NCBI GenBank assembly: GCA_934096265.1
Contig: CAKOLI010000001.1
Location: 141,512 to 205,511 of the forward strand
Reading direction: 5' to 3'
Source of the DNA: an uncultured Bacilli bacterium
GTDB lineage: Bacteria > Bacillota_I > Bacilli_A > RF39 > UBA660
Length of the DNA stretch: 64,000 nt
A program made the position numbers and the translations under genes. This document shows, piece by piece, positions 3,600-33,839 of this stretch; positions within the stretch are counted from its first letter, which is position 1, and each line of letters begins with the position of its first letter. The notes under the pieces were generated by a model, which searched no databases, had not been told where the DNA came from, and saw nothing but the letters and a program-made list of their open reading frames with translations.

Positions 3600-3628
3600 T
3601 TGACATATCATAAAATTCTAAGTATAAT
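3600..3628 (+). promoter_or_regulatory. consensus sigma-A promoter of the giant surface-protein gene
   Basis: TTGACA at 3600-3605, a 17-nt spacer, TATAAT at 3623-3628. The track's TTG start at 3600 is actually the -35 box. Confidence 0.65.
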
Positions 3629-3656
3629 TAATTTATCAAGTATAGGAGGTAAACTA

Positions 3657-6600
3657 ATGAAAGATGTAAGAAAGAAAAAGTTGACTTTAATAATAAGTAT
3701 AATTACAATAATCATTCTAGCTTTATCTGGTACTTATGCTCTATTTAAATGGAACTCTGATAACACAGATATTACCCTAGATGCCCATCTAGGCATCATT
3801 TATAAAAAAGAACACGATACCCTAACAGGAACATTAAATCCCGCTAATTCTAAAGATGAAGGATTATCTACCAACATAGAATTATGGACCACAACTACCA
3901 GAACTAAAGTATATGGAACCTTATTTTTTACAGTAAAAAGCATAGATTCCCCATTAAACCAAAATAGCATGCTAAAATGGGAACTTTGGAATAATGGAAA
4001 TAAATTAAATGAAGGAGATTTTAATGGCTTTGCAAATGGAGATATTGTAGAGTTATTAAAAGATACAGAACTATCTAACTCAAAAACAATATATACACTA
4101 TACGTATGGTTAGACGATAGCCGTATCACTTCAACTGACATAAGTGGTTCTACTATGGAAGTAGACGTTGGAGCTTCTGCAGTCCAAGTACCTACTAGTG
4201 AAAGCACTATTACTGTAGTAGATAATTCACCAGCTCAAACTACTTGGGTTAAAGATTACACATTATCCCTAAAAGCAACATCTACAGAATATAACATAAC
4301 AGGATATGCTGTAACGACATCTCCGGAAAAACCATCATCATACACTTCAGTAAGCACTCCAGGACTAACATATAACTTAAACTATACAGTAGATACTAAT
4401 GATAAATACTTCGTTTGGTTTAGAAATCAAAACAACAAAGTAGCTTATGCTACAGTAGACGTAAATAAAATAGATAATACTAAACCAGAAATAGATTTAA
4501 ATGGCACTTCTTCACCTAGTATTGCATCATCTAGTGCAACTATAAGCATTCCATTAAAAATAACCGATACCCAAAGTGGTATTAATACAAGCACATTTAC
4601 CTCTAATAGCTTAACTGTTAAAGTAGGAACAACTACTGTTAATCCAACCAAGACCATTACTTATCAAAAAGTAGAAAGTGGTATATACTCATACATACTT
4701 ACTCTAACTAACGTTACTGGTAATGGCAATATATCTTTAAACATACCTGCTTCCGCGATAAGCGATGTCGTTGGTAACACCAATAATAATAAAGATTTAA
4801 TTCCAAATATTGATATAGATAATACAGCTCCAGTAGTAAATAGCATAACAGCAGAACAATATACAAGCACTATTACAATTAGTGCTAACGCTACTGATAG
4901 CTATGGAACAATAGATACATATTGGTATAGCATAGATGGAGTAAACTACTATAGTTCTAATAATTCAAATTATACATTTACAAACGTATCATCTGGTAAC
5001 TATACAGCCTATGTATACGTCAAAGATAAAGCGGGCAATAAATCAAATACATATGAAAAAACAGTATTATTTGATAACATCCCACCTACATTAACATCTC
5101 TATTAGTAACTACCACATCTGGTACGTATGCAAATGGCAAAGCTATAGATATAACTGCAACTTACAGTGAAGATATAGTAAGTAGTACAGGTGCTACCAT
5201 AACATCAACTACTGCTCCAAAACTATCTCTAAAATTTGGTTCACAAACCGCAAGAGAAGCAACATTTAAAAGTGCTAGCTCAAACAAAATAAATTATCAA
5301 ATAGTAATAAATACTACTGACCTAGGATCATTAAGCTTATCTTCATATCAAGGAACAGTATATGATGCTGCAAATAACAGCCTAACATTATCAAACGTAA
5401 GCCTAGGAGGAAATGCGATTCAGGCATCTACTAAAGCAAAAATAGATACAACTTATTATACAACCCTAGCTTCTGCAATAAATACATCAAGTACTACAAA
5501 AACTATAACAATGGTAAATGATACAACCGAATGTGTAACAATACCAAGTAGTAATAATATAACTCTTGATTTATCAGGCAAAACAGTAACATGTACAACA
5601 TCTAACACTCCTCTAATAACTAACAATGGAACATTAACTATAAAATCTGGAACAACAGGGGGAACATTAAATAGTACTTACTATGCTATAGAAAATAAAG
5701 GTAGCCTAACACTTACAAGTGGTACAATCAAATCAACTAACAGCATCGCTGTAAATAATAACTCTACCGCTACAAATGCAAAAGGTGCATCATTATACGT
5801 AAATGGAGCAGAGGTAATCTCAACTAGTAATATAGGTATAAATAACGCGACAACAGGTATTATAACTATAGCATCTGGTACAGTAAAAGGTACCCAAAGT
5901 GGTATATACAATGTATCGACAGGAACAATAAATATAGGCTTATCAAGTGATACTTTAAGTACAACATCTCCTGCAATATATAACACAACAACATCTTCAT
6001 ATGGAGTATATATGAATAACGGAGGAACCCTAAATATTAATAATGGAGCTATCTACACTGCAAATACAAGCGTTGGAACAGCTTACTATAAAGGAACTTC
6101 AACCCTAACAGCAAGAAGTGGTTACCATGTTACAACATCAACTGAATCAGTATCTGGTGTAAGCAATAAAAAATCTTACCTAATAAGTGGAACAACACAA
6201 ATCCAATATCAATACAGGAATTATGACTCTTGTATAAAAAAAGAATGTGTAGGAGGAAATGTAACTAATTCTTCATGTGGATACGCAAGTTGTGTTAATA
6301 GTAATTGTTCTTGTGCTAAATGGAATTACACTACAACATGTGGATCATGGGTAGAAGGTACCTGTGAAAAATCTGGATATAATTTTGATACTACTGCGGA
6401 ATGTAATAGGCAAGGCACAAGTTGCACCGCATATACATCGTGTTCTGCTGGTGGTCAAGCTGGTAGCGGATATTATTGTTGCGATTACACTAGAACATGT
6501 ACCAAAAAGAAAACAAGTTGTAACACATATAATTCATGTCAAGATAGTTCATGTGGATACGCAACATGTTATGACTCCTGTGCAAATCTAGAATGTGTGG

Positions 6601-6728
6601 GAGGCTATACTGCTTGGACAAATTGGTCAACGAGCACTTTGTCTGGATACTCAAATTGTCAAAAGAGAACATGTAATCTAAACCCTGAAGGTGTAGTCAC
6701 TACATGTGGCACTGCTGGAAGTTGTTAG
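3657..6728 (+). CDS. giant exported modular protein: TasA/camelysin-like N-domain, Ig-like modules, beta-helix-like repeats, Cys-rich tail
   Basis: ATG 3657 follows AGGAGG (3644-3649). The N-terminus is KKK + TM + LSGTYALFKWNSD, resembling SipW-dependent signals. The N-domain ends YTLYVWLD..VDVGASAVQ. DNT(K/A)P-type Ig linkers and YVYVKDKAGN are present. GTL/GTI-x-I repeats span about aa 620-830. There are 24 Cys in the last 165 aa. Confidence 0.85.
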   Translation: MKDVRKKKLTLIISIITIIILALSGTYALFKWNSDNTDITLDAHLGIIYKKEHDTLTGTLNPANSKDEGLSTNIELWTTTTRTKVYGTLFFTVKSIDSPLNQNSMLKWELWNNGNKLNEGDFNGFANGDIVELLKDTELSNSKTIYTLYVWLDDSRITSTDISGSTMEVDVGASAVQVPTSESTITVVDNSPAQTTWVKDYTLSLKATSTEYNITGYAVTTSPEKPSSYTSVSTPGLTYNLNYTVDTNDKYFVWFRNQNNKVAYATVDVNKIDNTKPEIDLNGTSSPSIASSSATISIPLKITDTQSGINTSTFTSNSLTVKVGTTTVNPTKTITYQKVESGIYSYILTLTNVTGNGNISLNIPASAISDVVGNTNNNKDLIPNIDIDNTAPVVNSITAEQYTSTITISANATDSYGTIDTYWYSIDGVNYYSSNNSNYTFTNVSSGNYTAYVYVKDKAGNKSNTYEKTVLFDNIPPTLTSLLVTTTSGTYANGKAIDITATYSEDIVSSTGATITSTTAPKLSLKFGSQTAREATFKSASSNKINYQIVINTTDLGSLSLSSYQGTVYDAANNSLTLSNVSLGGNAIQASTKAKIDTTYYTTLASAINTSSTTKTITMVNDTTECVTIPSSNNITLDLSGKTVTCTTSNTPLITNNGTLTIKSGTTGGTLNSTYYAIENKGSLTLTSGTIKSTNSIAVNNNSTATNAKGASLYVNGAEVISTSNIGINNATTGIITIASGTVKGTQSGIYNVSTGTINIGLSSDTLSTTSPAIYNTTTSSYGVYMNNGGTLNINNGAIYTANTSVGTAYYKGTSTLTARSGYHVTTSTESVSGVSNKKSYLISGTTQIQYQYRNYDSCIKKECVGGNVTNSSCGYASCVNSNCSCAKWNYTTTCGSWVEGTCEKSGYNFDTTAECNRQGTSCTAYTSCSAGGQAGSGYYCCDYTRTCTKKKTSCNTYNSCQDSSCGYATCYDSCANLECVGGYTAWTNWSTSTLSGYSNCQKRTCNLNPEGVVTTCGTAGSC

Positions 6729-6738
6729 GAGGCATAAA

Positions 6739-7473
6739 ATGAAAAATATATTAAATAAAAATAATAATAAATTACTTTTAATACTTCTAGTATTAGTTAT
6801 TGGGGCGATTTTACTAATCGTCCTAATAAATACAGACAAAAAACAAAAAGATCCTTTTGATAATAACAAAAATGATAACAAAGAAATTGCAAACGTAACG
6901 CCAGATGATGTAAAAAAACTATACAACATATTAACTAGTAACACTTGCAATATCAAATATACATTTGATTTTAGTAATAATAAAACCATCAAAACAGAAG
7001 ATATGAGCGAAACTGATAAATTAACTATTATCTTCAATAACTTAAAATATAACAACATTATAAAAGATAAAATAAGTATAGAAGAGTATAATACCTATGC
7101 TAAAAATATCCTCGGTAATAGCACTAAAATACCTTCTACATTTAAAGACTTTAACTATGATGGTAATACTTACAATATAGAAAAAAATAAAATTATTAAA
7201 AATACCAGTACCTGCAATACCAAAGAAGAATATAAAAGCGCTCTTTATAGTTATTCATATAACTTATATGATCTAAGTATCTATATAAACTATATAGAAA
7301 TAAAAAATAATAAAGCATATGACTTAGATGGAAAACTAATAGATACATATACAAAAGAAAATGAAGAACGTATTATGAATAGTGCTACTAGTTATGTATA
7401 TAACTTTAAGAAAAATACAAATGGATATTACTTACAACAAGTATCTCTTGCAGTTAAAGAAACTAATAAATAA
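6739..7473 (+). CDS. membrane-anchored hypothetical protein
   Basis: ATG 6739 follows GGAGG, which overlaps the upstream stop. It has an N-terminal TM (LLLILLVLVIGAILLIVL) and an Asn/Lys-rich ectodomain with two Cys (TCN..TCN). Confidence 0.65.
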   Translation: MKNILNKNNNKLLLILLVLVIGAILLIVLINTDKKQKDPFDNNKNDNKEIANVTPDDVKKLYNILTSNTCNIKYTFDFSNNKTIKTEDMSETDKLTIIFNNLKYNNIIKDKISIEEYNTYAKNILGNSTKIPSTFKDFNYDGNTYNIEKNKIIKNTSTCNTKEEYKSALYSYSYNLYDLSIYINYIEIKNNKAYDLDGKLIDTYTKENEERIMNSATSYVYNFKKNTNGYYLQQVSLAVKETNK

Positions 7474-7511
7474 AAATAAAATAAAATAAATATAATATTA
7501 TAGGTGATTAT

Positions 7512-8522
7512 ATGAAAAAAATAACATTTATAATATTTTTCCTTTTTATAATAACATTAACAATACCCTTATCATCCCTAAAAAATACTAAAATAACATG
7601 TCAAAACACTAAAAAAGACAACATCGAAGCCCATTATCCTACATATAACATAAATAAACTAGATACTTATATAAAAAATCATATAAATAATATCATAAAT
7701 AATACCTCAAGTAATAATAACCTATATATAGATTATGATACTATAAATAATAAAGATAATATTAAAACAATAATATATACATATATAGATCAAAAAGGAT
7801 TAATAAAAAATAATATTACTGAAATTGATTATAATATAAAAACTAAAAATATAACTAAAGATATAAAAATAATAACCACTAGTAACAACTATAATATAGT
7901 AAATAACAAAGTAATTGATAAAAATAAAAAAATAATATCCTTCACCTTTGATGATGGCCCTAGTTATAACACCATAAAAATAGCAAACATTCTAAAGAAA
8001 TATAATGCTACTGCAACATTCTTTGTATTAGGTAATAAAGTAGAAAAATACGAAAAAACACTTAAATATTTAAAAGATAATAACATGGAAATAGGTAATC
8101 ATACATACACCCATAAATTCTTATCTAAATTAAAAGAAGAAGATATTATGCTAGAAATAAATAATACTCAAGAAGAAATATATAGAGTTACTAATACATA
8201 TCCAACATTATTTAGACCGAGTTATGGAACTGTATCTAATAAATTAAGAAGACTATCCCCAATGCCCCTTATTATATGGAACCTAGATACCTTAGATTGG
8301 AAATATCATAATTCTAATAAAATAGCAAATAAAATATTAAATAAAGTAAAAGATGGCGATATTATTCTTATGCATGATACATATTCCGCGACCGTAAATG
8401 CTGTAAATATAGTAATCCCTAAACTAATAGAACAAGGTTATGAAATAGTAAGCGTAAGTGAACTATTTTACTATAAAAACATAATTCCTACCTACGGCAA
8501 ATATTACGGACATATTAATTAA
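7512..8522 (+). CDS. polysaccharide (peptidoglycan) deacetylase, PdaC-like
   Basis: N-terminal signal/TM. NodB-homology motifs FTFDDGP, H-x-x-x-H (GNHTYTH), LFRPSYG and ILMHD. Confidence 0.85.
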   Translation: MKKITFIIFFLFIITLTIPLSSLKNTKITCQNTKKDNIEAHYPTYNINKLDTYIKNHINNIINNTSSNNNLYIDYDTINNKDNIKTIIYTYIDQKGLIKNNITEIDYNIKTKNITKDIKIITTSNNYNIVNNKVIDKNKKIISFTFDDGPSYNTIKIANILKKYNATATFFVLGNKVEKYEKTLKYLKDNNMEIGNHTYTHKFLSKLKEEDIMLEINNTQEEIYRVTNTYPTLFRPSYGTVSNKLRRLSPMPLIIWNLDTLDWKYHNSNKIANKILNKVKDGDIILMHDTYSATVNAVNIVIPKLIEQGYEIVSVSELFYYKNIIPTYGKYYGHIN

Positions 8523-8586
8523 TACATCTTGAAAAATAATTATATTTATTATATAATTATAATGTTTTAGTAAGTAGGGTGATAAA

Positions 8587-9153
8587 ATGAAAAACAAACT
8601 ATATAGATTTGTAAGAGCACTAGGAGTACCACTTTTTAAACTCCTATATAGACCAACAATTATTGGTATTAGTAACATTCCTACCTCAGGTAGAATCGTT
8701 CTAGCGGGAAATCACACTAATAATTTTGATTGTGCCCTCTTAATATCATCAACCAAAAGAACAATTCATTTCCTAGCTAAAAATGAATTACACAAAGGTA
8801 AACTAGGATGGTTCTTCACTTCAATGGGAACTATCCCAGTAGATAGAAATAATAAAGATACAAATGCATTATCAACTGCCATAGAAGTATTAAATAATAA
8901 TGAAGTAATTGGAATATTCCCAGAAGGTACAACTACCAAAGATGGAAGCCTTCTTCCCTTCAAAGTAGGCGCAGTAGTCATGGCAAATAGAACAAACTCA
9001 AAAATAGTTCCATTCGCAATTACAGGTGAATACAAACTATTTAGAAAAAACATTAAAATAACTTTTGCCTCTCCATATACTCCTAAAAACGATATCAGCT
9101 TAGCCAACGATGAACTAAGAAATAAAGTCATTAAACTAAAAGAGTCTAATTAG
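8587..9153 (+). CDS. lysophospholipid (1-acyl-glycerol-3-phosphate) acyltransferase family
   Basis: HX4D motif (NHTNNFD), FPEGT and FKVGA blocks. Confidence 0.8.
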   Translation: MKNKLYRFVRALGVPLFKLLYRPTIIGISNIPTSGRIVLAGNHTNNFDCALLISSTKRTIHFLAKNELHKGKLGWFFTSMGTIPVDRNNKDTNALSTAIEVLNNNEVIGIFPEGTTTKDGSLLPFKVGAVVMANRTNSKIVPFAITGEYKLFRKNIKITFASPYTPKNDISLANDELRNKVIKLKESN

Positions 9154-9167
9154 AAAGAAGAAAATCT

Positions 9168-10904
9168 ATGAAAAATTATTTAAATAAACTATATTATTAT
9201 CTTAAAAGAAAATTTAATAAAAGGAAACATGATGATGAAGAACCTATTAATATGCACCTAGAATATCCAGATATTAGCTTATATGAATTAATAGAAAATA
9301 CCGCGAATAAATATCCAAATAACATTGCCTATGAATACTATGGCCATGTTGTAACTTATAAAGATTTTATTAAGAAAATCAAAACCACTGCCTCTGCCTT
9401 AAAGAAAATAGGAGTTAAAAAAAAAGATAGAGTAACTATATGCATGCCTAATACCCCGAGTGCGGTTATCACTTTTTATGCCATAAACATGGTAGGAGCA
9501 ACTGCAAATATGATACACCCATTATCATCAGAAAATGAAATCCTAATGTACTTACAAATGGCAAAAAGCAAATACTTACTAGTAATAGATATGGATTATG
9601 AAAAAATCTGTAATATAATGGATAAAACAGAACTAGAACGCATCATAGTAAGCATACCCAACGAAGAAATGACAAACACTAAAAAAGCCCTTTACTGGTT
9701 CTTTACAGGAAGAAAAAACAAAATAAAACGCAACCCCAACACCATGCTATTTAAAGAATTTTATCATTTAGGGAACCCTAACGAAGATAATTTACTAACT
9801 CCTGCTTCCGCGGATGAAGAAGCGGTCATCCTATACAGTGGAGGAACCACCGGAGAACCTAAAGGCATAGTCTTATCAAATAGAAACTTTAACGCAGAAG
9901 CAATCGAATGCGAAGTAATGTGTAAAACTGCTAAAGAAGGAGACTCAATCTTATCTATAATGCCAATCTTCCATGCTTTTGGACTAGGTATATGTATTCA
10001 TACTATATTCTATATTGGCATGAAAGCAATATTAATCCCAACATTTAACGCCAAAAAATTTGGCTCACTAATTAAAAAGTATCATCCTAACTTTATAATT
10101 GGAGTACCTACCTTATTTGAAGCTCTACTTAAAAATAATAATCTAAAGAAAAATGACTTATCTTGTGTAACATGTGTTATCTCAGGCGGTGATAACCTAT
10201 CTTCTTCTCTAAAAGAAAAAGTAGACGAATTTTTAAAAACTCATGGTTCTAAAGCTCAAGTACGAGAAGGTTATGGATTAACTGAATGCGTTGGAGCTAG
10301 CTGTCTAACTCCATATAATAAATACAAAGAAAAAAGTATTGGACTTCCTTTACCAGATATAACCTACAAAATAGTAAAACCAACTACTCATGATGAAGTA
10401 GAACGTGGTATTGATGGAGAAATCTGTATAAATGGTCCAACCGTAATGATGGGATATTTAGATGACCCTAAAGAAACTTCTAACGTACTAAGAATACATG
10501 ACGATGGCAAACTTTGGCTACATACAGGAGACTTAGGATGCATGGATAGCGAAGGATTTGTCTACTTCAAACAAAGACTAAAAAGAATAATAGTATCATC
10601 AGGATATAACATCTATCCTAGCCATGTAGAAAATATTATCAACTCCCATCCACTAGTCCTAACATCAACCGTAATTGGTATTGACCATCCATACAAAGTC
10701 CAAGTAGCTAAAGCATATATTGTATTAAAAGAAAACGTAAAACCAAACTATACAACCAAAAAAAGCATCAAAGAACATTGCATCAAAAACTTAGCTAAAT
10801 ATTCCTTACCATACGAATATGTTTTTATTGATGAATTACCCAAAACTAAAATAGGCAAAATAGCATATAAAAAACTAGAACAAGATGCCTTAAAAAAAGA
10901 GTAA
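9168..10904 (+). CDS. AMP-dependent synthetase / long-chain fatty-acid-CoA ligase family
   Basis: AMP-binding motif YSGGTTGEPKG, plus GYGLTE, TGD and a C-terminal KxGK (KTKIGKI). Confidence 0.85.
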   Translation: MKNYLNKLYYYLKRKFNKRKHDDEEPINMHLEYPDISLYELIENTANKYPNNIAYEYYGHVVTYKDFIKKIKTTASALKKIGVKKKDRVTICMPNTPSAVITFYAINMVGATANMIHPLSSENEILMYLQMAKSKYLLVIDMDYEKICNIMDKTELERIIVSIPNEEMTNTKKALYWFFTGRKNKIKRNPNTMLFKEFYHLGNPNEDNLLTPASADEEAVILYSGGTTGEPKGIVLSNRNFNAEAIECEVMCKTAKEGDSILSIMPIFHAFGLGICIHTIFYIGMKAILIPTFNAKKFGSLIKKYHPNFIIGVPTLFEALLKNNNLKKNDLSCVTCVISGGDNLSSSLKEKVDEFLKTHGSKAQVREGYGLTECVGASCLTPYNKYKEKSIGLPLPDITYKIVKPTTHDEVERGIDGEICINGPTVMMGYLDDPKETSNVLRIHDDGKLWLHTGDLGCMDSEGFVYFKQRLKRIIVSSGYNIYPSHVENIINSHPLVLTSTVIGIDHPYKVQVAKAYIVLKENVKPNYTTKKSIKEHCIKNLAKYSLPYEYVFIDELPKTKIGKIAYKKLEQDALKKE

Positions 10905-10924
10905 TTATATAAATGAGGTGTAAA

Positions 10925-12337
10925 ATGACATTATTAGAAAAATACAAACAAGAATTTATAAAAAACTATAAACTATTCAAAAACAAGAAAACAAGAAAAC
11001 AAGAAATACCTAATATTTTAACATTATCAAGACTACTTTCTCCTATAATAATCATCCCCCTAGTATTAAAAAATAAATATAATCTAGCATTAATATTTAT
11101 CCTAATATTTGCATTAACAGATCTCCTAGATGGCTATATTGCAAGAAAATACAACTACGTTAGTAAATTAGGTAGAGAAATAGACCCTGTATGTGATAAA
11201 ATTTTTCTAGGAAGCTTACTTATTCCTTTAATCATCAAAAAACAATCACTACTTGTAAACATCCTCCTAGAACTTATAATTAGCATTATCTGTATAATTA
11301 ATAAAATTAAAGGTTATAACACTAAGGTAAATGGCTTTGGCAAATTCAAAACGGCTTTTATATACACATTAATTAGTTACACATACTTAAATCTATTTAT
11401 AAATACTAATAATAATATATATATAATCCTATACATCCTAACAATAATACTCCAAGTATCAACAATTATTACATATCTTACAAGAACTATAAAAAAAGAA
11501 CAAGAAGAAGATATACACATAAATAGCTTTGGTTATAAACTAATAAGACCTATATTTAAAGTATTTTTTAATCTCTACTTTAGACCTAAAGTAATAGGTA
11601 AAGAAAACATTCCTAAAGAAGGTCCATTCATTCTATGTGGTAACCATACCAACGTCCATGACCAATTTCCTATTATGATGAATACCAAAAGAGTAATACA
11701 CTACATCGCCAAAAAAGAATACTTTGACTCCAAAATGGGTTTCTTCTTCCGTTTTGTAGGACAAATACCAGTAGATAGAGAAAATAAAGATACAAATGCT
11801 AAAGAAGAAGCAATAGAAGTCCTAAAACATAATCATGCTCTAGGTATATTCCCAGAAGGAACAAGAAACGTCTTAGTATATAAAAATGACATTGTAAATA
11901 ATTTATACCCCCTTGTAGAACATACAGTAACTAAAGAACAATTTATCAAAATACTAAAAGATAACCAAACTAAATTATCTCAACTACATCTATTAGATAA
12001 ATTAAAAGAAACCTCTCGTATTAAACAAGAAGAATATAACTCATATCTCTTAGATTTACCAAACAAACTAAAACACTTACTAAAAAATAACGTCATAACT
12101 GAAGAAGAATATCGCAACTCATTACTTTTAGATTTTAAATATGGAGCAGTTTCTTTTGCTAGCAAAACAGATGCTTATATCTTACCATACGCCACATGTG
12201 GCAGATATCTTCATCATAGTAAAGATCTACGCATAATAATAGGAAAACCATTCAAAGTAGGAAATCTATCCCTAGAAGAAGCAAACCAAAAATTAAGAAA
12301 TACAATCATTGATATAATTATTAAAAATAGCAAATAA
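10925..12337 (+). CDS. fusion: CDP-alcohol phosphatidyltransferase (PgsA-like) + LPLAT acyltransferase with helical insert
   Basis: The N-terminal half has DLLDGYIARKYNYVSKLGREIDPVCD, which matches D-x2-DG-x2-AR-x8-G-x3-D-x3-D exactly. The C-terminal half has NHTNVHD (HX4D) and FPEGTRN. About 80 aa are inserted before FKYGAVSFA compared with the 8587 paralogue. ATG 10925 follows GAGGTG. Confidence 0.75.
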   Translation: MTLLEKYKQEFIKNYKLFKNKKTRKQEIPNILTLSRLLSPIIIIPLVLKNKYNLALIFILIFALTDLLDGYIARKYNYVSKLGREIDPVCDKIFLGSLLIPLIIKKQSLLVNILLELIISIICIINKIKGYNTKVNGFGKFKTAFIYTLISYTYLNLFINTNNNIYIILYILTIILQVSTIITYLTRTIKKEQEEDIHINSFGYKLIRPIFKVFFNLYFRPKVIGKENIPKEGPFILCGNHTNVHDQFPIMMNTKRVIHYIAKKEYFDSKMGFFFRFVGQIPVDRENKDTNAKEEAIEVLKHNHALGIFPEGTRNVLVYKNDIVNNLYPLVEHTVTKEQFIKILKDNQTKLSQLHLLDKLKETSRIKQEEYNSYLLDLPNKLKHLLKNNVITEEEYRNSLLLDFKYGAVSFASKTDAYILPYATCGRYLHHSKDLRIIIGKPFKVGNLSLEEANQKLRNTIIDIIIKNSK

Positions 12338-12353
12338 CACTTTGCTTTTTTTT
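12329..12353 (+). terminator. intrinsic terminator after the lipid operon
   Basis: Stem agcaaa (12329-12334) / tttgct (12341-12346) followed by a T8 run. It overlaps the stop codon. Confidence 0.5.
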
Positions 12354-12391
12354 CTTAATATGATAAAATTATAACTATAGGAGAGTGTAAT

Positions 12392-14323
12392 ATGAGAAAG
12401 AAAAACGGTTTTACCTTAATAGAAATAATAGTAATAATTTTACTAATTGCACTTATATCTACCATTACCATAATAACTGTCCAAGACAAAATAAATACCT
12501 CTAAAGATACAGCTCAAATACTTACTAATGATGCTCTTTTTCAAGCGGCTAATGGATATGTAACGGAATTTAAAAATAATTCTAACTCTTGGTATAAAGA
12601 ATATACAGGAAGCGTAGGGAACTATCAAGAAACAGGTAATGAATATGCTTGTACTACTATTCAAATGTTAATAGATAAAGGCTTTCTAAAAAATAACTTA
12701 AAAAATCCTTCTACTAAAGAAGATATAAATCATGATATATTTATAAAAGTAGTAAGAGATTCTCAAACTAAAGTAATCCAAAAACAAGTAATACTAGATA
12801 GTGAAGACTGTTCTAGCCTTGATGACGAACTCCCTAGTGTTACCTTTACTCCAAATGGCCTAGATATTCCACAAAGGCCACTTACAGTAACAATAACCCC
12901 TAAAGTAGGCCCATCAGGTATAAATAAAATGACATACTACCTAAAACAAGAAGGAAAAATAAAAACTACAGAGTACACCTCTACTAGTGAAGAAAATATA
13001 GAACTAAACATTGAAGGTACCGATATACATGTATGTGCAAATGTAATAAATGGTATTGACAAAACCAGTGGAGAAATATGCAGTAACTCGTTTATTATAG
13101 ATAATACTAGCCCAGTAGTTGAAAAGCTAGATTATACCCTAGGTTCTAACACAATTAAAGCCCACATTATCGAAAAAAACATAGACTCATACTGCATAAC
13201 CAAAGAAAATAATTCCACCTCTTGTACATGGCATAATATAAATGTAAATGACTTTGATATAACAGTATCAGAAAGTGCCACATACTACGTATACGTAAAA
13301 GATAAAGTAGATTTAATAAACGATAACACTACTAGTAATGTAGTAACAGTAAATATTGACTCTATCACACCATCTGTTAGTTTTAATCCTAATGGTAATA
13401 CCAATTACACAAATAGTAAAGAAGTAACAATTACCCCCGAAGTAGGAATATCATCAGTAAAAAGTATGAATTACTACATCAAAATAAATAATACTAAATA
13501 TAAAGAAAATACTTCAAATACAAAAGATGCAAAAACACTCTTAGTAGATATAGAAGGCTCTGATATATATGTATGTGCAAATATAACAAATGGTATTAAC
13601 ATACCAAGTGGAGAAATATGCAGTAACCCATTCATGATAGATAACACAAGCCCCATAGTAACCGCTACTTCCACAGTAGGTTCTTTAAATATAAATATCT
13701 CTGTAATAGAAAAAAATATTGACTCCTATTGTGTAACACAAGAAAATAGTTCCACTAATTGCACATGGACAAAAATAGCAGTAAATACATTTACTAAAGA
13801 AGCAGATGCAAGTGGCACATATAACATTTATGTAAAAGATAAAGCGGGTCACATTGGTAAAGGCCAAGTAACTATCATCCTAGAAAAAACAGCACAAATA
13901 ACCTGTACCGTCTCAAGTACAAGCAGTAGCTGTACAAAAACAGACACCATCAGTGACCTTAACAAAATAGTTAGCATAACTAGCGATACTGGTAGTGTAA
14001 ATTATACCCAAAATGGTACTTCACTAACCCTAAACTTTACAGGTGGTACCTACCAAGCAGGCACAGCCACATCATGTAACTGCACTACCACATCAACAAT
14101 ACAATGTGCATGTGGTGAGGAATGCTGTACCCCTCCAGGAGGAGGAGCCTCTGGAACATCTAGATGTGTAATGGGTCCTCCAGGAGGTTGCTTAAACTGT
14201 ACTGACATAAGCTGTGTCGCAGGAATGTGTCCATTTAATGACTGTGATACTAAAGAAACAACTTCTTGTAATACTTGTTATACATATAAATATACAGCAA
14301 CAATAAAATATATCCCAAAATAA
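12392..14323 (+). CDS. large modular type IV pilin-like protein (prepilin-type N-terminus, duplicated Ig-like module, Cys-rich tail)
   Basis: MRKKNG|FTLIEIIV is a class III signal with Gly-1, Phe+1 and Glu+5. A pilin-like head follows (..YACTTIQMLIDKGFL..). There are two 179-aa repeats and 16 Cys in the last 139 aa. Confidence 0.8.
   Translation: MRKKNGFTLIEIIVIILLIALISTITIITVQDKINTSKDTAQILTNDALFQAANGYVTEFKNNSNSWYKEYTGSVGNYQETGNEYACTTIQMLIDKGFLKNNLKNPSTKEDINHDIFIKVVRDSQTKVIQKQVILDSEDCSSLDDELPSVTFTPNGLDIPQRPLTVTITPKVGPSGINKMTYYLKQEGKIKTTEYTSTSEENIELNIEGTDIHVCANVINGIDKTSGEICSNSFIIDNTSPVVEKLDYTLGSNTIKAHIIEKNIDSYCITKENNSTSCTWHNINVNDFDITVSESATYYVYVKDKVDLINDNTTSNVVTVNIDSITPSVSFNPNGNTNYTNSKEVTITPEVGISSVKSMNYYIKINNTKYKENTSNTKDAKTLLVDIEGSDIYVCANITNGINIPSGEICSNPFMIDNTSPIVTATSTVGSLNINISVIEKNIDSYCVTQENSSTNCTWTKIAVNTFTKEADASGTYNIYVKDKAGHIGKGQVTIILEKTAQITCTVSSTSSSCTKTDTISDLNKIVSITSDTGSVNYTQNGTSLTLNFTGGTYQAGTATSCNCTTTSTIQCACGEECCTPPGGGASGTSRCVMGPPGGCLNCTDISCVAGMCPFNDCDTKETTSCNTCYTYKYTATIKYIPK
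12833..13906 (+). repeat. tandem in-gene duplication, 2 x 537 nt (12833-13369 and 13370-13906)
   Basis: Both units begin PSV(T/S)F(T/N)PNG. They share ..D I(H/Y)VCAN..SGEICSN..IDNTSP(V/I)V..IEKNIDSYC(I/V)T..YVKDK with clear nucleotide similarity. Confidence 0.8.
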
Positions 14324-14339
14324 AGAAAGGAATAATAAT

Positions 14340-14741
14340 ATGAAAGAAAAAAATAATTACCTAGCTATACTAGCTCTATCATTCTCAGTACTTTCTCTAA
14401 TATCAACAGTATTCTTATACTACGTAGTAACAAACAATTATAAAGAACTAAATGCTAATATAGATACTATAAAAAAAGAAAATACCAACACTCAAGATAA
14501 ACCAACCATGACCAAACTTCTAAATGACTTTGCCAGAAAACTAATTAATGATAACAAACTATCAAAAAAAGATTCCACTGATAACAAATTAACACTCACT
14601 TATAACGAAATGATTACTAAATACGGATTAAAAACAAACTACGAATGTATCGAAGAAGACACCTACGTAACATACACATTCTATTCTGAAAACGACAACG
14701 TTAAAGACATCTTAGTAAGTCAAAACTGTTATGAAAAATAA
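14340..14741 (+). CDS. small membrane-anchored secreted protein, paralogue of the 14731 gene
   Basis: N-terminal TM. Shares (A/Y)R(K)LIN..N(K/E)LTLT(Y/L)N(E/D)(M/L)I..C..(V/I)T(Y/I)TF..(Q/L)(N/S)C with the next gene. Confidence 0.65.
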   Translation: MKEKNNYLAILALSFSVLSLISTVFLYYVVTNNYKELNANIDTIKKENTNTQDKPTMTKLLNDFARKLINDNKLSKKDSTDNKLTLTYNEMITKYGLKTNYECIEEDTYVTYTFYSENDNVKDILVSQNCYEK

Positions 14742-15066
14742 AATAATACTCCTTATCTTAATCATCCTTACATCTACTGGTTGTAAGAAAAATACAGAAT
14801 ATAAAGAAGAAAGTATAAATACATTTATCTATAGACTAATAAATACAGGTAGTATAACTAATAAATCCGCTATCAACAATGAATTAACTCTAACATTAAA
14901 CGACCTAATAAATAACTACAACTACATCTATAAAGGTACTTGTAACAAAAATAATACAACCATAAAAATTACCTTTGATGAAGAAGGAAAAGTAGCAAAT
15001 ACAACTATAAATTTAAGCTGTGATATTAAAGAAGAAAGTAACATTCAAAATATTTATTTTGATTAA
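14731..15066 (+). CDS. small lipoprotein, paralogue of the 14340 gene
   Basis: Lipobox LTSTGC. The start overlaps the upstream stop by 11 nt. Two conserved Cys. Confidence 0.65.
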   Translation: MKNKIILLILIILTSTGCKKNTEYKEESINTFIYRLINTGSITNKSAINNELTLTLNDLINNYNYIYKGTCNKNNTTIKITFDEEGKVANTTINLSCDIKEESNIQNIYFD

Positions 15067-15123
15067 AAACATTGACAAAGCAAATTAAAAATATTATTAT
15101 ATAAATAGGTTTAAGGAGGAAAT

Positions 15124-15600
15124 ATGAAAAAAATATTTAAATTAGGAATTATTATCATATGCCTATTCATATTTACTGGATGTAATAAAAAAACAAATCA
15201 AGAAGAGCAAAAAGAATTTTATATGGGTGACACAATATCTATAAAAAACTTTGACATAACATTTTTAAATTACTCTATTAGAAAAGCTATCGGTTCTAAC
15301 GAAAAACATCAAGACTTAGTATTCTTAGAAGTAAATTTAAAAAATACTAGTAAAAAAGAGCAAAGGTTCACAAACAGTAGCTATAAAGTATTTGGACCAG
15401 ACAACACAGAACTAGATATTATATCAAATTCAAAATATACTACTTCTCTAAATAACGTAGGCAACATAAGAAGTGATGGTACCACCAGTGGACACCTTAT
15501 CTTTGAATATGCTGGATATGGTAAATATTACTTAGAATTTGTAAATACAAAAGGTTCTAAAGTAACATTAATACTTGATATCTATGAAAATATAGAATAG
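15124..15600 (+). CDS. lipoprotein, DUF4352-like
   Basis: Lipobox FTGC. The GDTISIKNFDITF..LVFLEVNLKNTS pattern is typical of DUF4352 Ig-like lipoproteins. Assigned from memory. Confidence 0.55.
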   Translation: MKKIFKLGIIIICLFIFTGCNKKTNQEEQKEFYMGDTISIKNFDITFLNYSIRKAIGSNEKHQDLVFLEVNLKNTSKKEQRFTNSSYKVFGPDNTELDIISNSKYTTSLNNVGNIRSDGTTSGHLIFEYAGYGKYYLEFVNTKGSKVTLILDIYENIE

Positions 15601-15649
15601 TAACTCCTAATGGATTACTATTTTTTTCATATGTTTTAGAAAGGAACTT

Positions 15650-16339
15650 ATGAATAATAATTTTAAAAACTTACCCAACGAAGAAAAACCCCGTGAAAGA
15701 CTAAAAAAATATGGAAGAGCAAATCTATCTAATGAAGAATTACTATCTATCATACTAAAAACAGGAACCCATAACGTACCTGTAGATGAACTATCCAAAA
15801 ACCTCCTAGTAGAATTAAAAAGCATTACTAATTTAAAAGATATAACCTTATCTAAATTAACAAGCATAAAAGGAATAGGGGAAGTAAAAGCCTTATCTCT
15901 ATATGCTTCAATCGAACTAGGAAGAAGAATTTTTCAGTCAAAACCACTTACTAAAAAATATAACATAAGTAACCCAATAGACATAATTAACTATTACAAC
16001 GACATACTAAAAGATAAATTACAAGAAGAATTTCATGTCCTATACCTAGATAGCAATAACACCATCATCTCATCCAAAAGACTCTTTATAGGAACCATCA
16101 ACCGTTCCATCGTTCATCCAAGAGAAATATTCAAAGAAGCCTATCTAAACTCTGCTTGTAAAATAGTCTGCATCCATAATCATCCATCAGGAAGTGTCAC
16201 TCCCAGCAAAGAAGATATAATGATTACTAAAAGCCTAGATGAAATAGGCAGAATACATGATATAAAACTAGTAGACCACTTAATAATAGGCCTAGACAAA
16301 TATTTTAGCTTTTATGAGAATAAATATTTAAAAAACTAA
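15650..16339 (+). CDS. radC: RadC-family JAB-domain protein
   Basis: N-terminal PRERL and HhH (IKGIGEVKA). JAMM motif HNHPSG with S..D. Confidence 0.9.
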   Translation: MNNNFKNLPNEEKPRERLKKYGRANLSNEELLSIILKTGTHNVPVDELSKNLLVELKSITNLKDITLSKLTSIKGIGEVKALSLYASIELGRRIFQSKPLTKKYNISNPIDIINYYNDILKDKLQEEFHVLYLDSNNTIISSKRLFIGTINRSIVHPREIFKEAYLNSACKIVCIHNHPSGSVTPSKEDIMITKSLDEIGRIHDIKLVDHLIIGLDKYFSFYENKYLKN

Positions 16340-16399
16340 ATTATACTTTTAAAAAAGATATTTATGTTATATAATAAAAATATACAAGGAGGATAAAAT

Positions 16400-17254
16400 A
16401 TGAATAAATTTAAAAAACTATCTATAAAACATATAATACTAATAATTATAGTTATCCTCCTAGGTTTACTTCTAATATTTAACTACACCCTAAAAAAAGA
16501 TAGAAAACTAAATCCCATTGAAGCCCTAGTAAAAGATACAATAACATGTGTAACCAAAGTAATACGTGCCCCAATAGACTATGTAGGCTCACTAATAAAA
16601 GACTTTAAAGAATTAAAAAATGTCCAAAAAGAAAACCAAATATTAAAAGATAAATTAGAAGAAATAGATTTTATAAATACCAAAAATACAGAACTTATGC
16701 GTCAAATAAAAAAACAACAAGAAGAACTAGGCATAGAATATAACCTAACAGAATATGAATACTTAAATAGTACTATAACAAATCGTAATATAGGATATTG
16801 GTATAACACAATTACAATCGATAAAGGAAGCTACAACGGAGTAAAAAAAGATATGCCCGTTGTAAACAAAAAAGGCTTAATAGGAAGAGTAGTAAGCACT
16901 ACTAACTTTACATCTACAGTAAAACTAATAACTACAACAGATACATCTAACAAACTATCAGTTCTAGTTACTAATCAAGAATACAATCTTTATGGTCTTC
17001 TTTATAAATATGATGAAAAAGAAAACGTCTTACTAGTAGAAGGAATAAGTAACACTGACAAAGTAAGTATAAATGACTTAGTCTATACAAGTGGCATGGG
17101 AGGTATATTTCCAAGTGGTATCTTAATAGGAAAAGTATCATCTATTAAAACAGACTCATATGGCTTATCTAAAATAATTAGAGTATCACCATCAGTAGAC
17201 TTTTCATCACTTAGTTATGTAACCATATTAAAAAGAAAGGATGAATTAAAATGA
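16400..17254 (+). CDS. mreC: rod shape-determining protein MreC
   Basis: TM plus coiled coil (ENQILKDKLEE), with beta-barrel motifs GLIGRV and GGIFPSGILIG. Confidence 0.85.
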   Translation: MNKFKKLSIKHIILIIIVILLGLLLIFNYTLKKDRKLNPIEALVKDTITCVTKVIRAPIDYVGSLIKDFKELKNVQKENQILKDKLEEIDFINTKNTELMRQIKKQQEELGIEYNLTEYEYLNSTITNRNIGYWYNTITIDKGSYNGVKKDMPVVNKKGLIGRVVSTTNFTSTVKLITTTDTSNKLSVLVTNQEYNLYGLLYKYDEKENVLLVEGISNTDKVSINDLVYTSGMGGIFPSGILIGKVSSIKTDSYGLSKIIRVSPSVDFSSLSYVTILKRKDELK

Positions 17255-17763
17255 TTTATCCTTTAATTATTATAACAATATCCTTCCTCCTAGATGGCCT
17301 AATATCCTCATACATAAACATATTCTCATCTAATATATCTATATTCTCAACAATCTATACAGTCCTAGCACTAAGCATGGTAACAAAATATATTAAAGAT
17401 GAAAAAAAATATTATCTAGTATACCTATTAACAGGCCTACTATTCGATATGGCTTATACAAACACATTTATACTTAACATGACAATATTCTTCCTCTTAG
17501 GATTAATAACAAAACACCTACTATATATCCTAACAGATAACCTTATAAATAACATCCTAATCTCATATATAAATATAGTAGTATACTACATAACTACCCA
17601 ACTAATATTAGTAATCTCAAACTATACCACTTTTAATAGTTATTTATTACTAAAAATAATTTATAGTAGCATAATTATGAGTATTATATATACTATCATA
17701 CTATATATATCAAATAGCCTATTTAAACAAAACAACTTTAAACATTACCACAAAAAGTTATAA
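17251..17763 (+). CDS. mreD: rod shape-determining protein MreD
   Basis: A 170-aa polytopic membrane protein. ATGA overlap with mreC. Position fits. Confidence 0.7.
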   Translation: MIYPLIIITISFLLDGLISSYINIFSSNISIFSTIYTVLALSMVTKYIKDEKKYYLVYLLTGLLFDMAYTNTFILNMTIFFLLGLITKHLLYILTDNLINNILISYINIVVYYITTQLILVISNYTTFNSYLLLKIIYSSIIMSIIYTIILYISNSLFKQNNFKHYHKKL

Positions 17764-17801
17764 ATAAACATAATCACTCATATTATTTACTGGTGAATAA
17801 T

Positions 17802-18404
17802 ATGGAAATAAATCTAAATAGTAAGTATCTAAAAAACAAAAAAGAAAACAAAAAAACATATAAAAAATATCTAGTAGGCCTATCATACCGCATATTAATT
17901 AGCGTCCTTATATTCCTATCTCTTGCCATATATATAAAAGCATCTAATAAAAATAAAGAAATAGTATACCAAAATATATATAACAATAACTTTCTATATA
18001 CCAAAGCTAAAAAATATTATGATAAATACTTAAAAGGAGTATATCCTTTCTCTAAAATATTTAAAGAAGATACCAACCTAGTATTTAATGAAACCCTACA
18101 TTATACTGCCCAAAATAAATACCTAGATGGAGTAAAATTAACTGTAGATACTAACTATTTAGTACCAGTATTAAAATCTGGTATAGTAATATATATTGGA
18201 GAAAAACCTAACTATGGTTCTACCGTAATAATCCAAGGAACTGATGAAATAGAAATATGGTACGCTAATATTTCAAATATAAACGTCTCACTATATGACT
18301 ATGTAACCATAGGAACCCTTCTAGGAGAAGTAAAAGATAATAATCTCTACTTAGTATATAGTCAAAATGGAAAGTATTTAAACTATGAAGAATTTCTTAA
18401 ATAA
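17802..18404 (+). CDS. degenerate M23/LytM-domain membrane protein, SpoIVFA-like by position
   Basis: TM plus a C-terminal LytM-like fold (..GIVIYIGEKPNYGSTVIIQG..IGTLLGEV..). The catalytic His residues are replaced. It sits between mreD and the M50 protease, as in Bacillus. Confidence 0.55.
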   Translation: MEINLNSKYLKNKKENKKTYKKYLVGLSYRILISVLIFLSLAIYIKASNKNKEIVYQNIYNNNFLYTKAKKYYDKYLKGVYPFSKIFKEDTNLVFNETLHYTAQNKYLDGVKLTVDTNYLVPVLKSGIVIYIGEKPNYGSTVIIQGTDEIEIWYANISNINVSLYDYVTIGTLLGEVKDNNLYLVYSQNGKYLNYEEFLK

Positions 18405-19164
18405 AATAGAATTTTCTAATTATTACTTACTCATGGCCTTAAGCTTTATCTTAATAGGCTACTACAAAAACCTATTAATCTTCACAACACTTATTATAAT
18501 TCATGAACTAGGCCATGCCATCTCAGCATCTTTCTTTAAAGTAAAAATAAACAAAATAATTATCTATCCCTACGGAGGACTAACTAAACTAGATAATTAT
18601 CTAAATATTAAAATAAACAAAGAACTAATTATTTCAATATCAGGCCTACTATCCCAAACTCTATTTTATTACCTAATGATTTTTATTAATAATAAATATC
18701 ATTTTTTTAACGACTACACCATAAATATCCTTACAATGTATCATAAAAGTATGTTTATATTTAACTTACTACCAGTAATTCCCTTAGATGGCTCTAAAAT
18801 ACTCTTATGTATACTTAATCGTATATTTCCATATAATTTAAGTAACTATCTAAGTATATACATATCTTTTATTACTCTAATAATATCTATCTATATAATA
18901 AGAGATAATATAAACTATACATATATAATGACCCTATGTATATGTCTTAAAAATATCTATAATTTCTATAAAGAATGCACCTATCTATTTAACAAATTTA
19001 TCCTAGAAAGATATCTATATCAATTTAACTTTAAACATATAAAAGTAATCAAAGACTATCATAATATGTATAAAGATTATAACCATATAATAAAAGATAA
19101 AACTAAATACCAAAAAGAAGCTGACTTTTTAACAAAAATGTTTGACATTCATAAGTATTTATGA
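18385..19164 (+). CDS. M50 site-2 protease, SpoIVFB-like
   Basis: HELGH (IIIHELGHA) and the NLLPVIPLDG motif. Polytopic. No CBS domain is evident. Confidence 0.75.
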   Translation: MKNFLNKIEFSNYYLLMALSFILIGYYKNLLIFTTLIIIHELGHAISASFFKVKINKIIIYPYGGLTKLDNYLNIKINKELIISISGLLSQTLFYYLMIFINNKYHFFNDYTINILTMYHKSMFIFNLLPVIPLDGSKILLCILNRIFPYNLSNYLSIYISFITLIISIYIIRDNINYTYIMTLCICLKNIYNFYKECTYLFNKFILERYLYQFNFKHIKVIKDYHNMYKDYNHIIKDKTKYQKEADFLTKMFDIHKYL

Positions 19165-19170
19165 TAAAAT
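19142..19170 (+). promoter_or_regulatory. promoter of the rplU operon
   Basis: TTGACA at 19142-19147, a 17-nt spacer, and extended -10 TGaTAAAAT at 19162-19170. Confidence 0.6.
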
Positions 19171-19176
19171 CTTATA

Positions 19177-19279
19177 TGTTTGTAAGACCTCTGTTGTTAA
19201 TTCAACCGCACTAAAAAGGTTATAAGTGATTAAATCCACCTCTAAGGCGAGTCTTATTTAAAATTTAAGGAGGTAAAAT
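19177..19279 (+). promoter_or_regulatory. structured 5' leader of rplU (candidate L21-leader type autoregulatory RNA)
   Basis: Long-range pairing gtaagac (19182-19188) / gtcttat (19251-19257) encloses about 60 nt. The position matches the Bacillota L21 leader. No covariance model was run. Confidence 0.4.
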
Positions 19280-19582
19280 ATGAAAGCAATAATTGAAACT
19301 GGTGGTAAACAATACTACGTATCAGAAGGCAGTGTTATCTATGTTGAAAAGCTAGATACTCCTAAAGATGGAGAAGTTATTTTTGACAAAGTACTATTAG
19401 TAGATGGCCAAGCAGGAAATCCTTATGTTGATAATGCTAAAGTATCAGGTGTTGTACTAAAACAAGGTAAGAACAAGAAAATTACTATCTTCAAGTACAA
19501 ACCAAAGAAAAAATCAACAAGAAGAAAAGTAGGTCATAGACAACCATACACTAAAGTTGAAATTAAATCAATTTCTAAGTAA
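19280..19582 (+). CDS. rplU: 50S ribosomal protein L21
   Basis: [12 protein letters not shown].. is a canonical L21. Confidence 0.95.
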
Positions 19583-19590
19583 GGTATATA

Positions 19591-19896
19591 ATGATTAAAG
19601 TAACAGTATCAAAAGATAATGAAGTAATTAAAAATATCACCATAAAAGGTCATGCTAATTATGCTCCCTATGGTAAAGATATTGTATGTGCAAGTGTTAG
19701 TACATTAGTAATTACTTCAATAAATAATATTATATCTCTTGATAACAAATCAGTAAAATATGATATTAAAAATGATAGTACGTATATTGAGTTACTTAGT
19801 AATAGTAATATTGCTATAAGTATTCTTAATAATATGATTAATTCTTTAATTGAATTAGAAAGTAACTATCCTAAAAACATAAAAGTAACTATGTAA
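19591..19896 (+). CDS. prp: ribosomal-processing cysteine protease Prp
   Basis: GHANYAPYGKDIVCASVS motif. Located between rplU and rpmA. Confidence 0.85.
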   Translation: MIKVTVSKDNEVIKNITIKGHANYAPYGKDIVCASVSTLVITSINNIISLDNKSVKYDIKNDSTYIELLSNSNIAISILNNMINSLIELESNYPKNIKVTM

Positions 19897-19908
19897 GGAG
19901 GGTAAAGA

Positions 19909-20202
19909 ATGCCAAAGTTTTTAAAGTTAAATATACAACTATTCGCTCATAAAAAAGGACAAAGTTCTACTAGCAATGGTAGAGATTCTGAATCTAAAAG
20001 ATTAGGTGCTAAAGCTAGTGATGGTGAATATATTACTGGAGGAAGTATTATATATCGTCAAAGAGGAACAAAAATTCATCCTGGAAATAATGTAAGAAGA
20101 GGTAAAGATGACACTTTATATACAACTATTTCAGGATATGTAAAATATGAACGTTTAGGTAAAGATAGAAAACAAGTTAGTGTTTATGAAGAAAGGGCAT
20201 AA
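19909..20202 (+). CDS. rpmA: 50S ribosomal protein L27 with Prp-cleaved N-terminal extension
   Basis: [13 protein letters not shown]|HKKGQSST.. carries the Bacillota-type propeptide. Confidence 0.95.
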
Positions 20203-20292
20203 TAAGCTCTTTTTTCTTTACACATACATAAAAAAATGTCTAAAAATATCAAATCATATGCTATAATAAGAGGTATAGTTAGGAGATGTAAC

Positions 20293-20760: not shown

Positions 20761-20777
20761 ATGAGGATTTGATATAA

Positions 20778-22583: not shown

Positions 22584-22592
22584 AAGGCCATT

Positions 22593-33796: not shown

Positions 33797-33839
33797 ATTT
33801 ACGTCTTTATCTTCATCATAAAAAGGGAGTGTGTTATAC

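Follow-up and report, generated by a model that had tools for sequence, protein, structure and literature searches.

Among the described systems, those closest to the gene reported here are the pilins PilB and PilC of Streptococcus sanguinis, in which a short class III leader and a small pilin module are followed by a bulky cargo consisting of a single von Willebrand factor type A (vWA) domain in PilB and a lectin domain in PilC (PMC8179133, PMC9934059). A further relative in design is CofB, the tip minor pilin of the type IVb pilus of enterotoxigenic Escherichia coli (ETEC), in which the pilin module gives way to beta-rich domains without database signature, first a beta-repeat and then a distal beta-sandwich that is the binding part (PMC6048534, PMC8179133). 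Modular pilins serve in adhesion, and their exposure at the filament tip has been proposed (PMC8179133). A preliminary description of the DNA analyzed here took such proteins to be rare; since a survey published in 2021 counted more than 1,200 of them in 264 architectures (PMC8179133), the modular design is in fact widespread. Here we describe a modular type IV pilin of 643 amino acids (aa), encoded at positions 12392-14323 (+) of a 64,000-nucleotide (nt) stretch from an uncultured Bacilli bacterium. This stretch, hereafter the window, corresponds to C1:141512-205511 of the assembly G000 (15 contigs, named C1, C2 and so on; 861 kb; estimated completeness 80%), and position numbers without a contig name refer to it. 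We consider it probable that the protein is a minor pilin that is processed by the peptidase PilD, is displayed on a type IV filament, with the tip as its probable position, and serves in adhesion by means of the Cys-rich domain at its distal end. For processing, filament entry, tip location and adhesion we rely on the analogy with S. sanguinis PilB and PilC and with CofB; the identification of the protein as a modular type IV pilin is supported by the analyses below.

The start codon ATG of the gene lies 7 nt downstream of the Shine-Dalgarno sequence GGAGA (12380-12384, read directly from the sequence) and opens the six-residue leader peptide MRKKNG (12392-12409), after whose Gly6 PilD is predicted to cut. 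The N-terminus continues from this inferred cleavage site as FTLIEIIVIILLIALISTITIITV, starting with FTLIE and going on into a stretch of 24 hydrophobic residues. It therefore has all the features of a type IV pilin signal, namely a short positive leader, Gly(-1), Phe(+1), Glu(+5) and a hydrophobic stretch. The pilin passes the Pfam model N_methyl (PF07963, InterPro IPR012902) at 22.7 bits with a cut-off of 21.2, which supports the canonical class III signal with Glu+5 that had been read by eye, and scores slightly under the cut-off of TIGR02532 (14.0 and 16.3, respectively). By searching all six frames of the 861-kb genome with a regular expression, we found only five prepilin motifs, all of them preceded by a leader rich in Lys or Arg and none more than about 15 residues from where its open reading frame (ORF) starts. 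The motif is therefore no chance match. A looser expression for divergent prepilin motifs returned only noise.

The signal leads into the alpha1 helix of the mature pilin (residues 7-60, 12410-12571), which begins with Phe+1 and Glu+5 and is made of a hydrophobic alpha1N and an amphipathic alpha1C, as indicated by AlphaFold and by the family profile. The profile of the pilin family matches alpha1 of solved, filament-forming pilins, with E-values between 3e-13 and 5e-7 for the best dozen. These include the PilA-N of Geobacter (2.9e-13), a PilA (2.3e-11) and a PilE1 (4.7e-11), followed by MshA, more PilA-type pilins, PpdD and GspG. Two other assignments were tried and rejected. The GspH/FimT/FimU family of minor pseudopilins (PF12019) reaches 24.5 bits over the whole protein with no single stretch passing, the best one covering only residues 120-169, and the GspH model TIGR01708 scores 22.9 with a cut-off of 80, confined to alpha1N. 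A Flp/Tad pilin, which would have about 50-80 aa and Glu-Tyr at positions five and six after the Gly of the cleavage site, is excluded by GFTLIE and by the length of 643 aa.

The small pilin head occupies residues 61-146 (12572-12829) and contains the conserved pair C87/C140, according to a head-only AlphaFold model and to the alignment of homologues. The model, built from 33 sequences, has a mean predicted local distance difference test (pLDDT) of 84 and consists of a helix at residues 9-60 followed by four strands. Alpha1 is predicted over residues 9-58 or 9-60, with pLDDT of about 89-95 in the head-only model. This predicted helix of about 50 residues with a small beta-sheet head agrees with the pilin-like head that had been proposed from the letters. 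The head motif ACTTIQMLIDKGFLKN is kept among homologues, which show no or almost no variation at C87, L93 and C140; in the closer homologues, this is also true of K96 and G97. The head has no non-synonymous change between two near-identical strains, which is the strongest constraint found in the protein.

The rest of the protein had been described as a tandem duplication of a 179-aa Ig-like module followed by a Cys-rich tail. The duplication is evident at the DNA level, where nt 495-916 and 1032-1453 of the gene are 69.6% identical with an offset of 537 nt, corresponding to 179 aa, and at the protein level (50% identity, E-value 5e-49). We modeled the full-length protein with AlphaFold from an alignment of 23 sequences (mean pLDDT 76), and obtained a helix at residues 9-58, the small head, four beta-sandwiches with pLDDT mostly of 78-92 and a C-terminal sandwich. 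The Ig-like fold of the module is thus supported by prediction, and each 179-aa repeat is predicted to be composed of two Ig-like domains and not of one. On the combined indications of the self-match, AlphaFold and Foldseek, repeat 1 spans residues 147-325 (12830-13366), with Cys pairs C215/C230 and C268/C278, and repeat 2 spans residues 326-504 (13367-13903), with Cys pairs C395/C410 and C447/C457. The Foldseek matches of the full model are only generic Ig- or fn3-like arrays without functional clue, such as the grappling-hook protein GhpA and cell-surface receptors (E-values of about 1e-11).

In the AlphaFold model, the repeats are followed by a C-terminal beta-sandwich (residues 505-643, 13904-14320), whose strands at residues 499-555 and 631-642 have pLDDT of 79-87 and whose fold is closed by the last strand, YTYKYTATIKYIPK. 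The Cys-rich insert of this domain (residues 557-629, 14060-14278) carries 14 Cys arranged as CxC, CC and CxxC, all within residues 562-629, and is the Cys-rich tail of the preliminary description. The whole protein has an even number of Cys, 26, and the 12 outside the tail are C87/C140 in the head and one closely spaced pair for each predicted beta-sandwich. Several secreted proteins of the genome, the pilin included, carry conserved Cys pairs in every domain.

As its head of about 140 aa is extended by four Ig-like domains and by a sandwich at the C-terminus, the protein falls within the modular pilins as defined by Raynaud et al. (2021). It resembles S. sanguinis PilB and PilC, modular minor pilins of a monoderm (PMC8179133, PMC9934059), in the short class III leader, in the small pilin module with bulky cargo, in the Firmicute host and in the proposed adhesion from a filament, probably from its tip. 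It differs from them in several respects: the cargo is not a single vWA or lectin domain but four Ig-like domains and a Cys-rich beta-sandwich without Pfam match, the gene lies outside a pil operon and is followed by conserved small partner genes with two Cys, and sequence similarity was found only in alpha1. CofB (PMC6048534, PMC8179133) shares with it the order of pilin module and beta-rich domains without database signature. Unlike the pilin of the window, CofB is a type IVb pilin from a diderm and has no Cys-rich insert; its gene is part of the cof operon, and its trimer binds CofJ, a secreted protein.

No pilus assembly gene had been noticed near the pilin, and indeed T2SSE, T2SSF and Peptidase_A24 have no match inside the window. 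We therefore searched the whole genome for the type IV filament machinery, as the preliminary description had advised. The prepilin peptidase PilD (C2:1965-2729 (-), 254 aa) matches A24_N_bact with 109.6 bits and Peptidase_A24 with 50.4 bits, and is encoded by the only Peptidase_A24 gene in the assembly. This gene lies directly downstream of the gene for the platform protein PilC (C2:2739-4148), which has two T2SSF domains (175.7 bits). Also encoded in the genome are four short GFTLIE pilins, with lengths of 118-166 aa, whose genes lie singly amid housekeeping genes. All five GFTLIE pilin genes, like the genes for large modular pilins in related metagenome-assembled genomes (MAGs), stand alone among housekeeping genes. 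Scattered pilin genes are therefore normal in this clade, and the 'orphan' location of the 643-aa pilin is not a peculiarity of it.

The genome encodes Tad-type components too. One Tad-type locus (C1:86866-91664) comprises a CpaF/TadA-type ATPase and two genes with a T2SSF domain; ahead of these come a ParA-like gene and three small ones, the N-termini of which look Flp- or TadE-like by eye. These candidate Flp pilin and TadE-like genes (C1:86866-87836) were identified by N-terminal motif and gene context only. A second, Tad-like locus (C3:12820-18650) encodes, besides an ATPase of 370 aa, an RcpC/CpaB-like protein and two polytopic membrane proteins without T2SSF match.

On the analogy with the described modular pilins, the following route to the cell surface can be proposed. 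The class III signal would insert the precursor into the membrane, where PilD would cut after Gly6 and probably N-methylate Phe+1. The hydrophobic alpha1 would then allow the PilB/PilC machinery to load the subunit into a filament made mainly of one of the short GFTLIE pilins. Since about 500 residues of cargo hang on a head of 140 residues, the most likely position of the subunit would be the filament tip. The four Ig-like domains would form a rigid stalk presenting the terminal beta-sandwich, whose 70-residue loop with 14 Cys would be the likely ligand-contacting part, and the protein would be an adhesin. The two downstream genes with two Cys, which are inherited together with such pilins, would probably help in folding, anchoring or priming.

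Some observations weigh against this proposal. The PilB-type ATPase is not in the 80%-complete assembly, in which the only T2SSE matches are the TadA-like ATPase (212 bits) and the 370-aa ATPase (95 bits). A PilB-type ATPase with 403-430 bits is present in nine of the nine searched genomes of the same family that are at least 81% complete, including the congener G001, and the only genomes of the family without it are G000 and a 70%-complete congener. In G001, pilB is a stand-alone gene of 425 aa, divergent from two pilin-like genes, and its neighbors thiI, RNase J, ung and proS (prolyl-tRNA synthetase) are all missing from G000 in a tblastn search. As relatives at least 81% complete have the gene and its neighbors in the congener are missing too, the absence of PilB is likely an assembly gap. 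Foldseek returned no significant match of the head-only model to PDB entries or solved pilins (best E-value 0.4); models with a long helix, so-called lollipops, are difficult for Foldseek. The Cys-rich insert, the likely ligand-binding part, has pLDDT of only 32-38 (residues 557-626) and no family match. Finally, despite the 26 paired Cys, genes for oxidative folding (Thioredoxin_4/DsbA-like, DsbB, VKOR) were not found in the 80%-complete assembly.

With ComEC present in the genome, a different role for the filament is conceivable. The protein could be a minor pilin of a competence pilus of the Com type that feeds DNA to ComEC, with a cargo binding DNA or a partner cell and not host material. 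In favor of this role, the congener PilB is short and lies alone beside minor pilin genes, and a small genome makes the scavenging of DNA or nutrients plausible. On the other hand, the NCBIfam models of the competence pilins ComGC, ComGD, ComGE and ComGF, which were tried and rejected as assignments, score 13-19 bits with cut-offs of 49-80 and match alpha1N only. The Ig-like stalk and the Cys-rich domain have no match to any DNA-binding family, and the cargo varies strongly between species, as is typical of adhesins. We regard a competence role as quite improbable.

To judge whether the gene is still in use, we relied on its conservation. A copy with 98% identity and the same synteny occurs in a Hadza gut metagenome, and a copy with this identity was seen on several contigs. 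The ratio of non-synonymous to synonymous substitution rates (dN/dS) between this copy and that of the window is 0.23, and the gene is therefore under purifying selection. The two strains have a synonymous divergence (dS) of 0.005-0.008 in the genes flanking the pilin, compared with 0.011 for the head and 0.03-0.09 for the cargo; the counts are small. The cargo has thus diverged faster, and its raised dS fits a recombining surface-protein gene. That the gene is a non-functional relic, with a pilin motif no longer serving any machinery, might be thought from its distance to the machinery genes and from the PilB missing in the assembly. This is contradicted by the intact frame of 643 codons with a good ribosome-binding site, by the purifying selection, by the copies on several contigs and by the retention of the two-copy architecture and of all 14 tail Cys in an orthologue at 52% identity. 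In addition, PilD and PilC are encoded in the genome and PilB in its relatives, so that peptidase and machinery are by no means lacking throughout, the circumstance that would have made the motif a relic or a plain membrane anchor. We consider a relic extremely improbable.

Full-length orthologues occur only inside the genus, and named genomes, when searched, yielded no close relative of the pilin; the relatives located through MreC are MAGs labeled 'Bacilli bacterium' or 'uncultured Tenericutes'. The orthologue in the sister species G002 is 53% identical to the pilin, while MreC is 79% identical between the two. It also has two repeat copies, which bears on the age of the duplication. The two copies of the window are 52% identical to each other, and 55% and 50% identical to the orthologous copies in G002. 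As the duplication is shared with G002 and the paralogues are as diverged as the orthologues, it is old, and not recent as first thought. Homologues do vary in the number of repeats, a point raised for checking in the preliminary description: the metagenome protein P0003, a 40%-identical homologue, has a single one.

Comparison with the congener revealed that the cargo at this locus is replaced between species. The syntenic locus of G001 (L036:6499-8949, on contig C70 of G001), also 3' of a gene for a PgsA/PlsC fusion, encodes an 816-aa pilin whose head is 34% identical to that of the window pilin and whose cargo is different. Residues 207-816 of this pilin (610 aa) are instead 56% identical, over about 670 aa, to residues 372-1042 of another protein of the window, encoded 6 kb upstream of the pilin gene at 3600-6728 (+). 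The latter, of 1042 aa as translated, is a related surface protein with a non-pilin N-terminus, a signal ending GTYALFKW, Ig-like modules, a repetitive stretch rich in Gly, Thr, Ser and Asn and a Cys-rich tail different from that of the window pilin. The part common to the two proteins includes this tail, which ends CQKRTCNL..EGVVT.CG.AGSC. Since the same cargo occurs on two N-termini, large cargos move between pilin and non-pilin carriers in the genus.

A 'TasA-like' assignment of the N-terminus of the 3600-6728 protein was dropped: it has no support in Pfam, NCBIfam or PDB sequences, and the resemblance is one of signal motif by eye only. At least seven paralogous surface proteins have an N-terminus ...NKRVYLIIGVITITML.MGVTTAWFTW, with a resemblance by eye to the TasA/SipW type that no family model confirms. 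They are encoded at 33831-35345 (+) in the window and at C1:83382-85175, C1:279388-281190, C2:28749-30527, C2:34030-35379, C2:82529-84334 and C8:39226-41031. The copy at 33831-35345 has leucine-rich repeats and is HupY/LrrG-like (E-value 1e-25). Further members, with N-termini of the STYAMY or SSYAMF type, are found at C1:220275-224471 and C8:18230-19924.

Two small genes follow the pilin gene. The first (14340-14741 (+)) codes for a bitopic membrane protein of 133 aa in which a pair of Cys is invariant, and has homologous small genes at other loci. The second (14731-15066 (+)), which overlaps the first by 11 nt, encodes a 111-aa lipoprotein with the lipobox LTSTGC, a paralogue of the first as seen in the alignment of the partner proteins. 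Five other metagenome loci were examined, and in four of them, as well as at the copy of the sister species G002, the pilin gene is followed by a small gene for 97-133 aa. The four are the Hadza strain copy (L011), a contig holding the P0002 orthologue (L013), L014 and L015; in the fifth (L012), the pilin gene is followed just by a doubtful 174-aa lipoprotein. The wider neighborhoods in which the partner recurs differ. It is either anchored by a transmembrane segment or a lipoprotein, and its conserved features are the motif LTLT..L..YG and the Cys pair, which is invariant; in the alignment, T87, C103 and C130 are invariant. The partners gave nothing significant in Pfam, NCBIfam and PDB-sequence searches, and a search for the family found no members beyond those at the examined loci. 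The idea that they are domains like the pilin head was rejected on present evidence, as the profile-profile comparison of the two alignments with hhalign gave a probability of 0.1%.

These partners and the exchange of cargos bear on whether the pilin enters a filament at all. It could use the class III signal for export and anchoring alone, being processed by PilD and then remaining in the membrane, held by alpha1N and perhaps by the partners with two Cys, with its Ig-like stalk exposed on the cell surface. The occurrence in the genus of the same kind of cargo on a non-pilin N-terminus would suit this alternative, as the N-terminus may be a swappable anchor, and so would the lack of assembly genes nearby and the conservation of small membrane proteins or lipoproteins beside the gene. 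A precedent is the bindosome of Sulfolobus, whose sugar-binding proteins carry class III signals and are proposed to be displayed in this way, outside a filament (PMC3047682). However, Glu+5 and the entire alpha1 are kept as in polymerizing pilins, the head with its Cys pair is the most constrained part of the protein, and the full set of PilB, PilC and PilD is retained in the clade. We therefore think that display on the membrane is unlikely, and favor incorporation into a filament.

As a more speculative extension, these gut Bacilli with reduced genomes may possess a pool of large adhesive cargos, some with a Cys-rich domain at the end, that are shuttled between a pilin head and a non-pilin, TasA/SipW-like carrier, the pilin cassette including the partners with two Cys. 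As no Dsb-type oxidase was found, these partners, or a metal-thiolate cluster formed by the 14 Cys, could take over folding, anchoring or ligand capture. We put this forward tentatively, as a scheme that is rather unlikely to hold as a whole; if true, it would represent an undescribed accessory system for tip pilins.

The wider neighborhood of the pilin gene contains genes of other kinds. Directly 5' of it, at 10913-12337 (+), lies the gene for a fusion of a CDP-alcohol phosphatidyltransferase (PgsA) and a PlsC-type acyltransferase (90 and 72 bits, respectively). The fusion gene comes after those for an acyl-AMP ligase and a second acyltransferase, and each of the three species of the genus has it on the 5' side of the pilin gene. 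On the 3' side of the pilin and its partners, the gene at 15124-15600 (+) encodes a DUF4352 lipoprotein (26.8 bits; cut-off, 25.9), and a strong promoter-like site of its own lies at 15072-15100 (11 out of 12 matches). G002 and the Hadza strain both have this gene together with the cassette, and it is not found beside more distant homologues.

The pilin belongs to a wider family of large proteins from uncultured bacteria. Its repeat module contains two motifs, IDSYC.T..N.S..C.W and Y.YVKDKAGN. Many large surface proteins without a pilin N-terminus have several copies of this module, and it is likewise present in a dozen further proteins that have a pilin head. A profile search returned about 40 more large proteins with a pilin head, of 322-1,216 aa and from uncultured MAGs, whose cargos include Y_Y_Y, Big_13, Flg_new and fn3 domains and, in some, thrombospondin type-1 repeats. 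The pilins P0067-P0105 from gut Bacilli MAGs resemble the pilin of the window in having GFTLIE, the motif ...C.T...L...GY... and a second Cys about 50 residues on; they carry 300-1,200 aa of Ig-like, Flg_new, Y_Y_Y or thrombospondin type-1 cargo and are encoded by genes scattered among housekeeping genes. Unlike in P0067-P0105, the Cys-rich C-terminal domain and the strand Y.Y.Y..T(I/V)KY, the terminal strand of the C-terminal sandwich, are shared with P0002, P0003, P0029 and P0051 only. One of these four metagenome proteins matches the genome of G002.

Some members of this family deserve mention in their own right. Residues 400-457 of P0026 and 938-988 of P0071 match TSP1_ADAMTS with 25.4 and 26.6 bits, respectively (Pfam cut-off, 23.8), and thus place a thrombospondin type-1 repeat, an adhesive module of eukaryotic type, on a bacterial type IV pilin. 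Locus L045 of a related MAG (ERZ28654015 scaffold_10, 348 kb) contains, in about 19 kb at 4635-23264, genes with pilin heads for 1087, 1080 and 1273 aa and a gene for a 1144-aa Flg_new protein. Housekeeping and two-component genes lie in between these giant genes, of which the three with pilin heads fall in one 23-kb stretch, and each of the two complete pilin genes has an unannotated ORF on its 3' side. In the relative with locus L041 (CP091726.1, a 'Bacilli bacterium' chromosome), the radC and mreC homologues at 6000-8700 look broken into short ORFs when read with genetic code table 11, which may be due to the use of TGA as a sense codon or to frameshifts.

The pilin of the window adds a member to a known and widespread class and introduces no new principle. 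It is a clean case of the grafting of modules onto a type IV pilin in an uncultured lineage of the human gut with a genome of about 1 Mb, which keeps a complete pilus tool-kit scattered over the genome. Around this known design there are two uncharacterized accessories, namely the terminal domain rich in Cys and the small partners with two Cys that are inherited along with the pilin. The cargo is swapped between species at a fixed locus, as well as between pilin and non-pilin carriers, which points to strong diversifying pressure on surface adhesion in this lineage.

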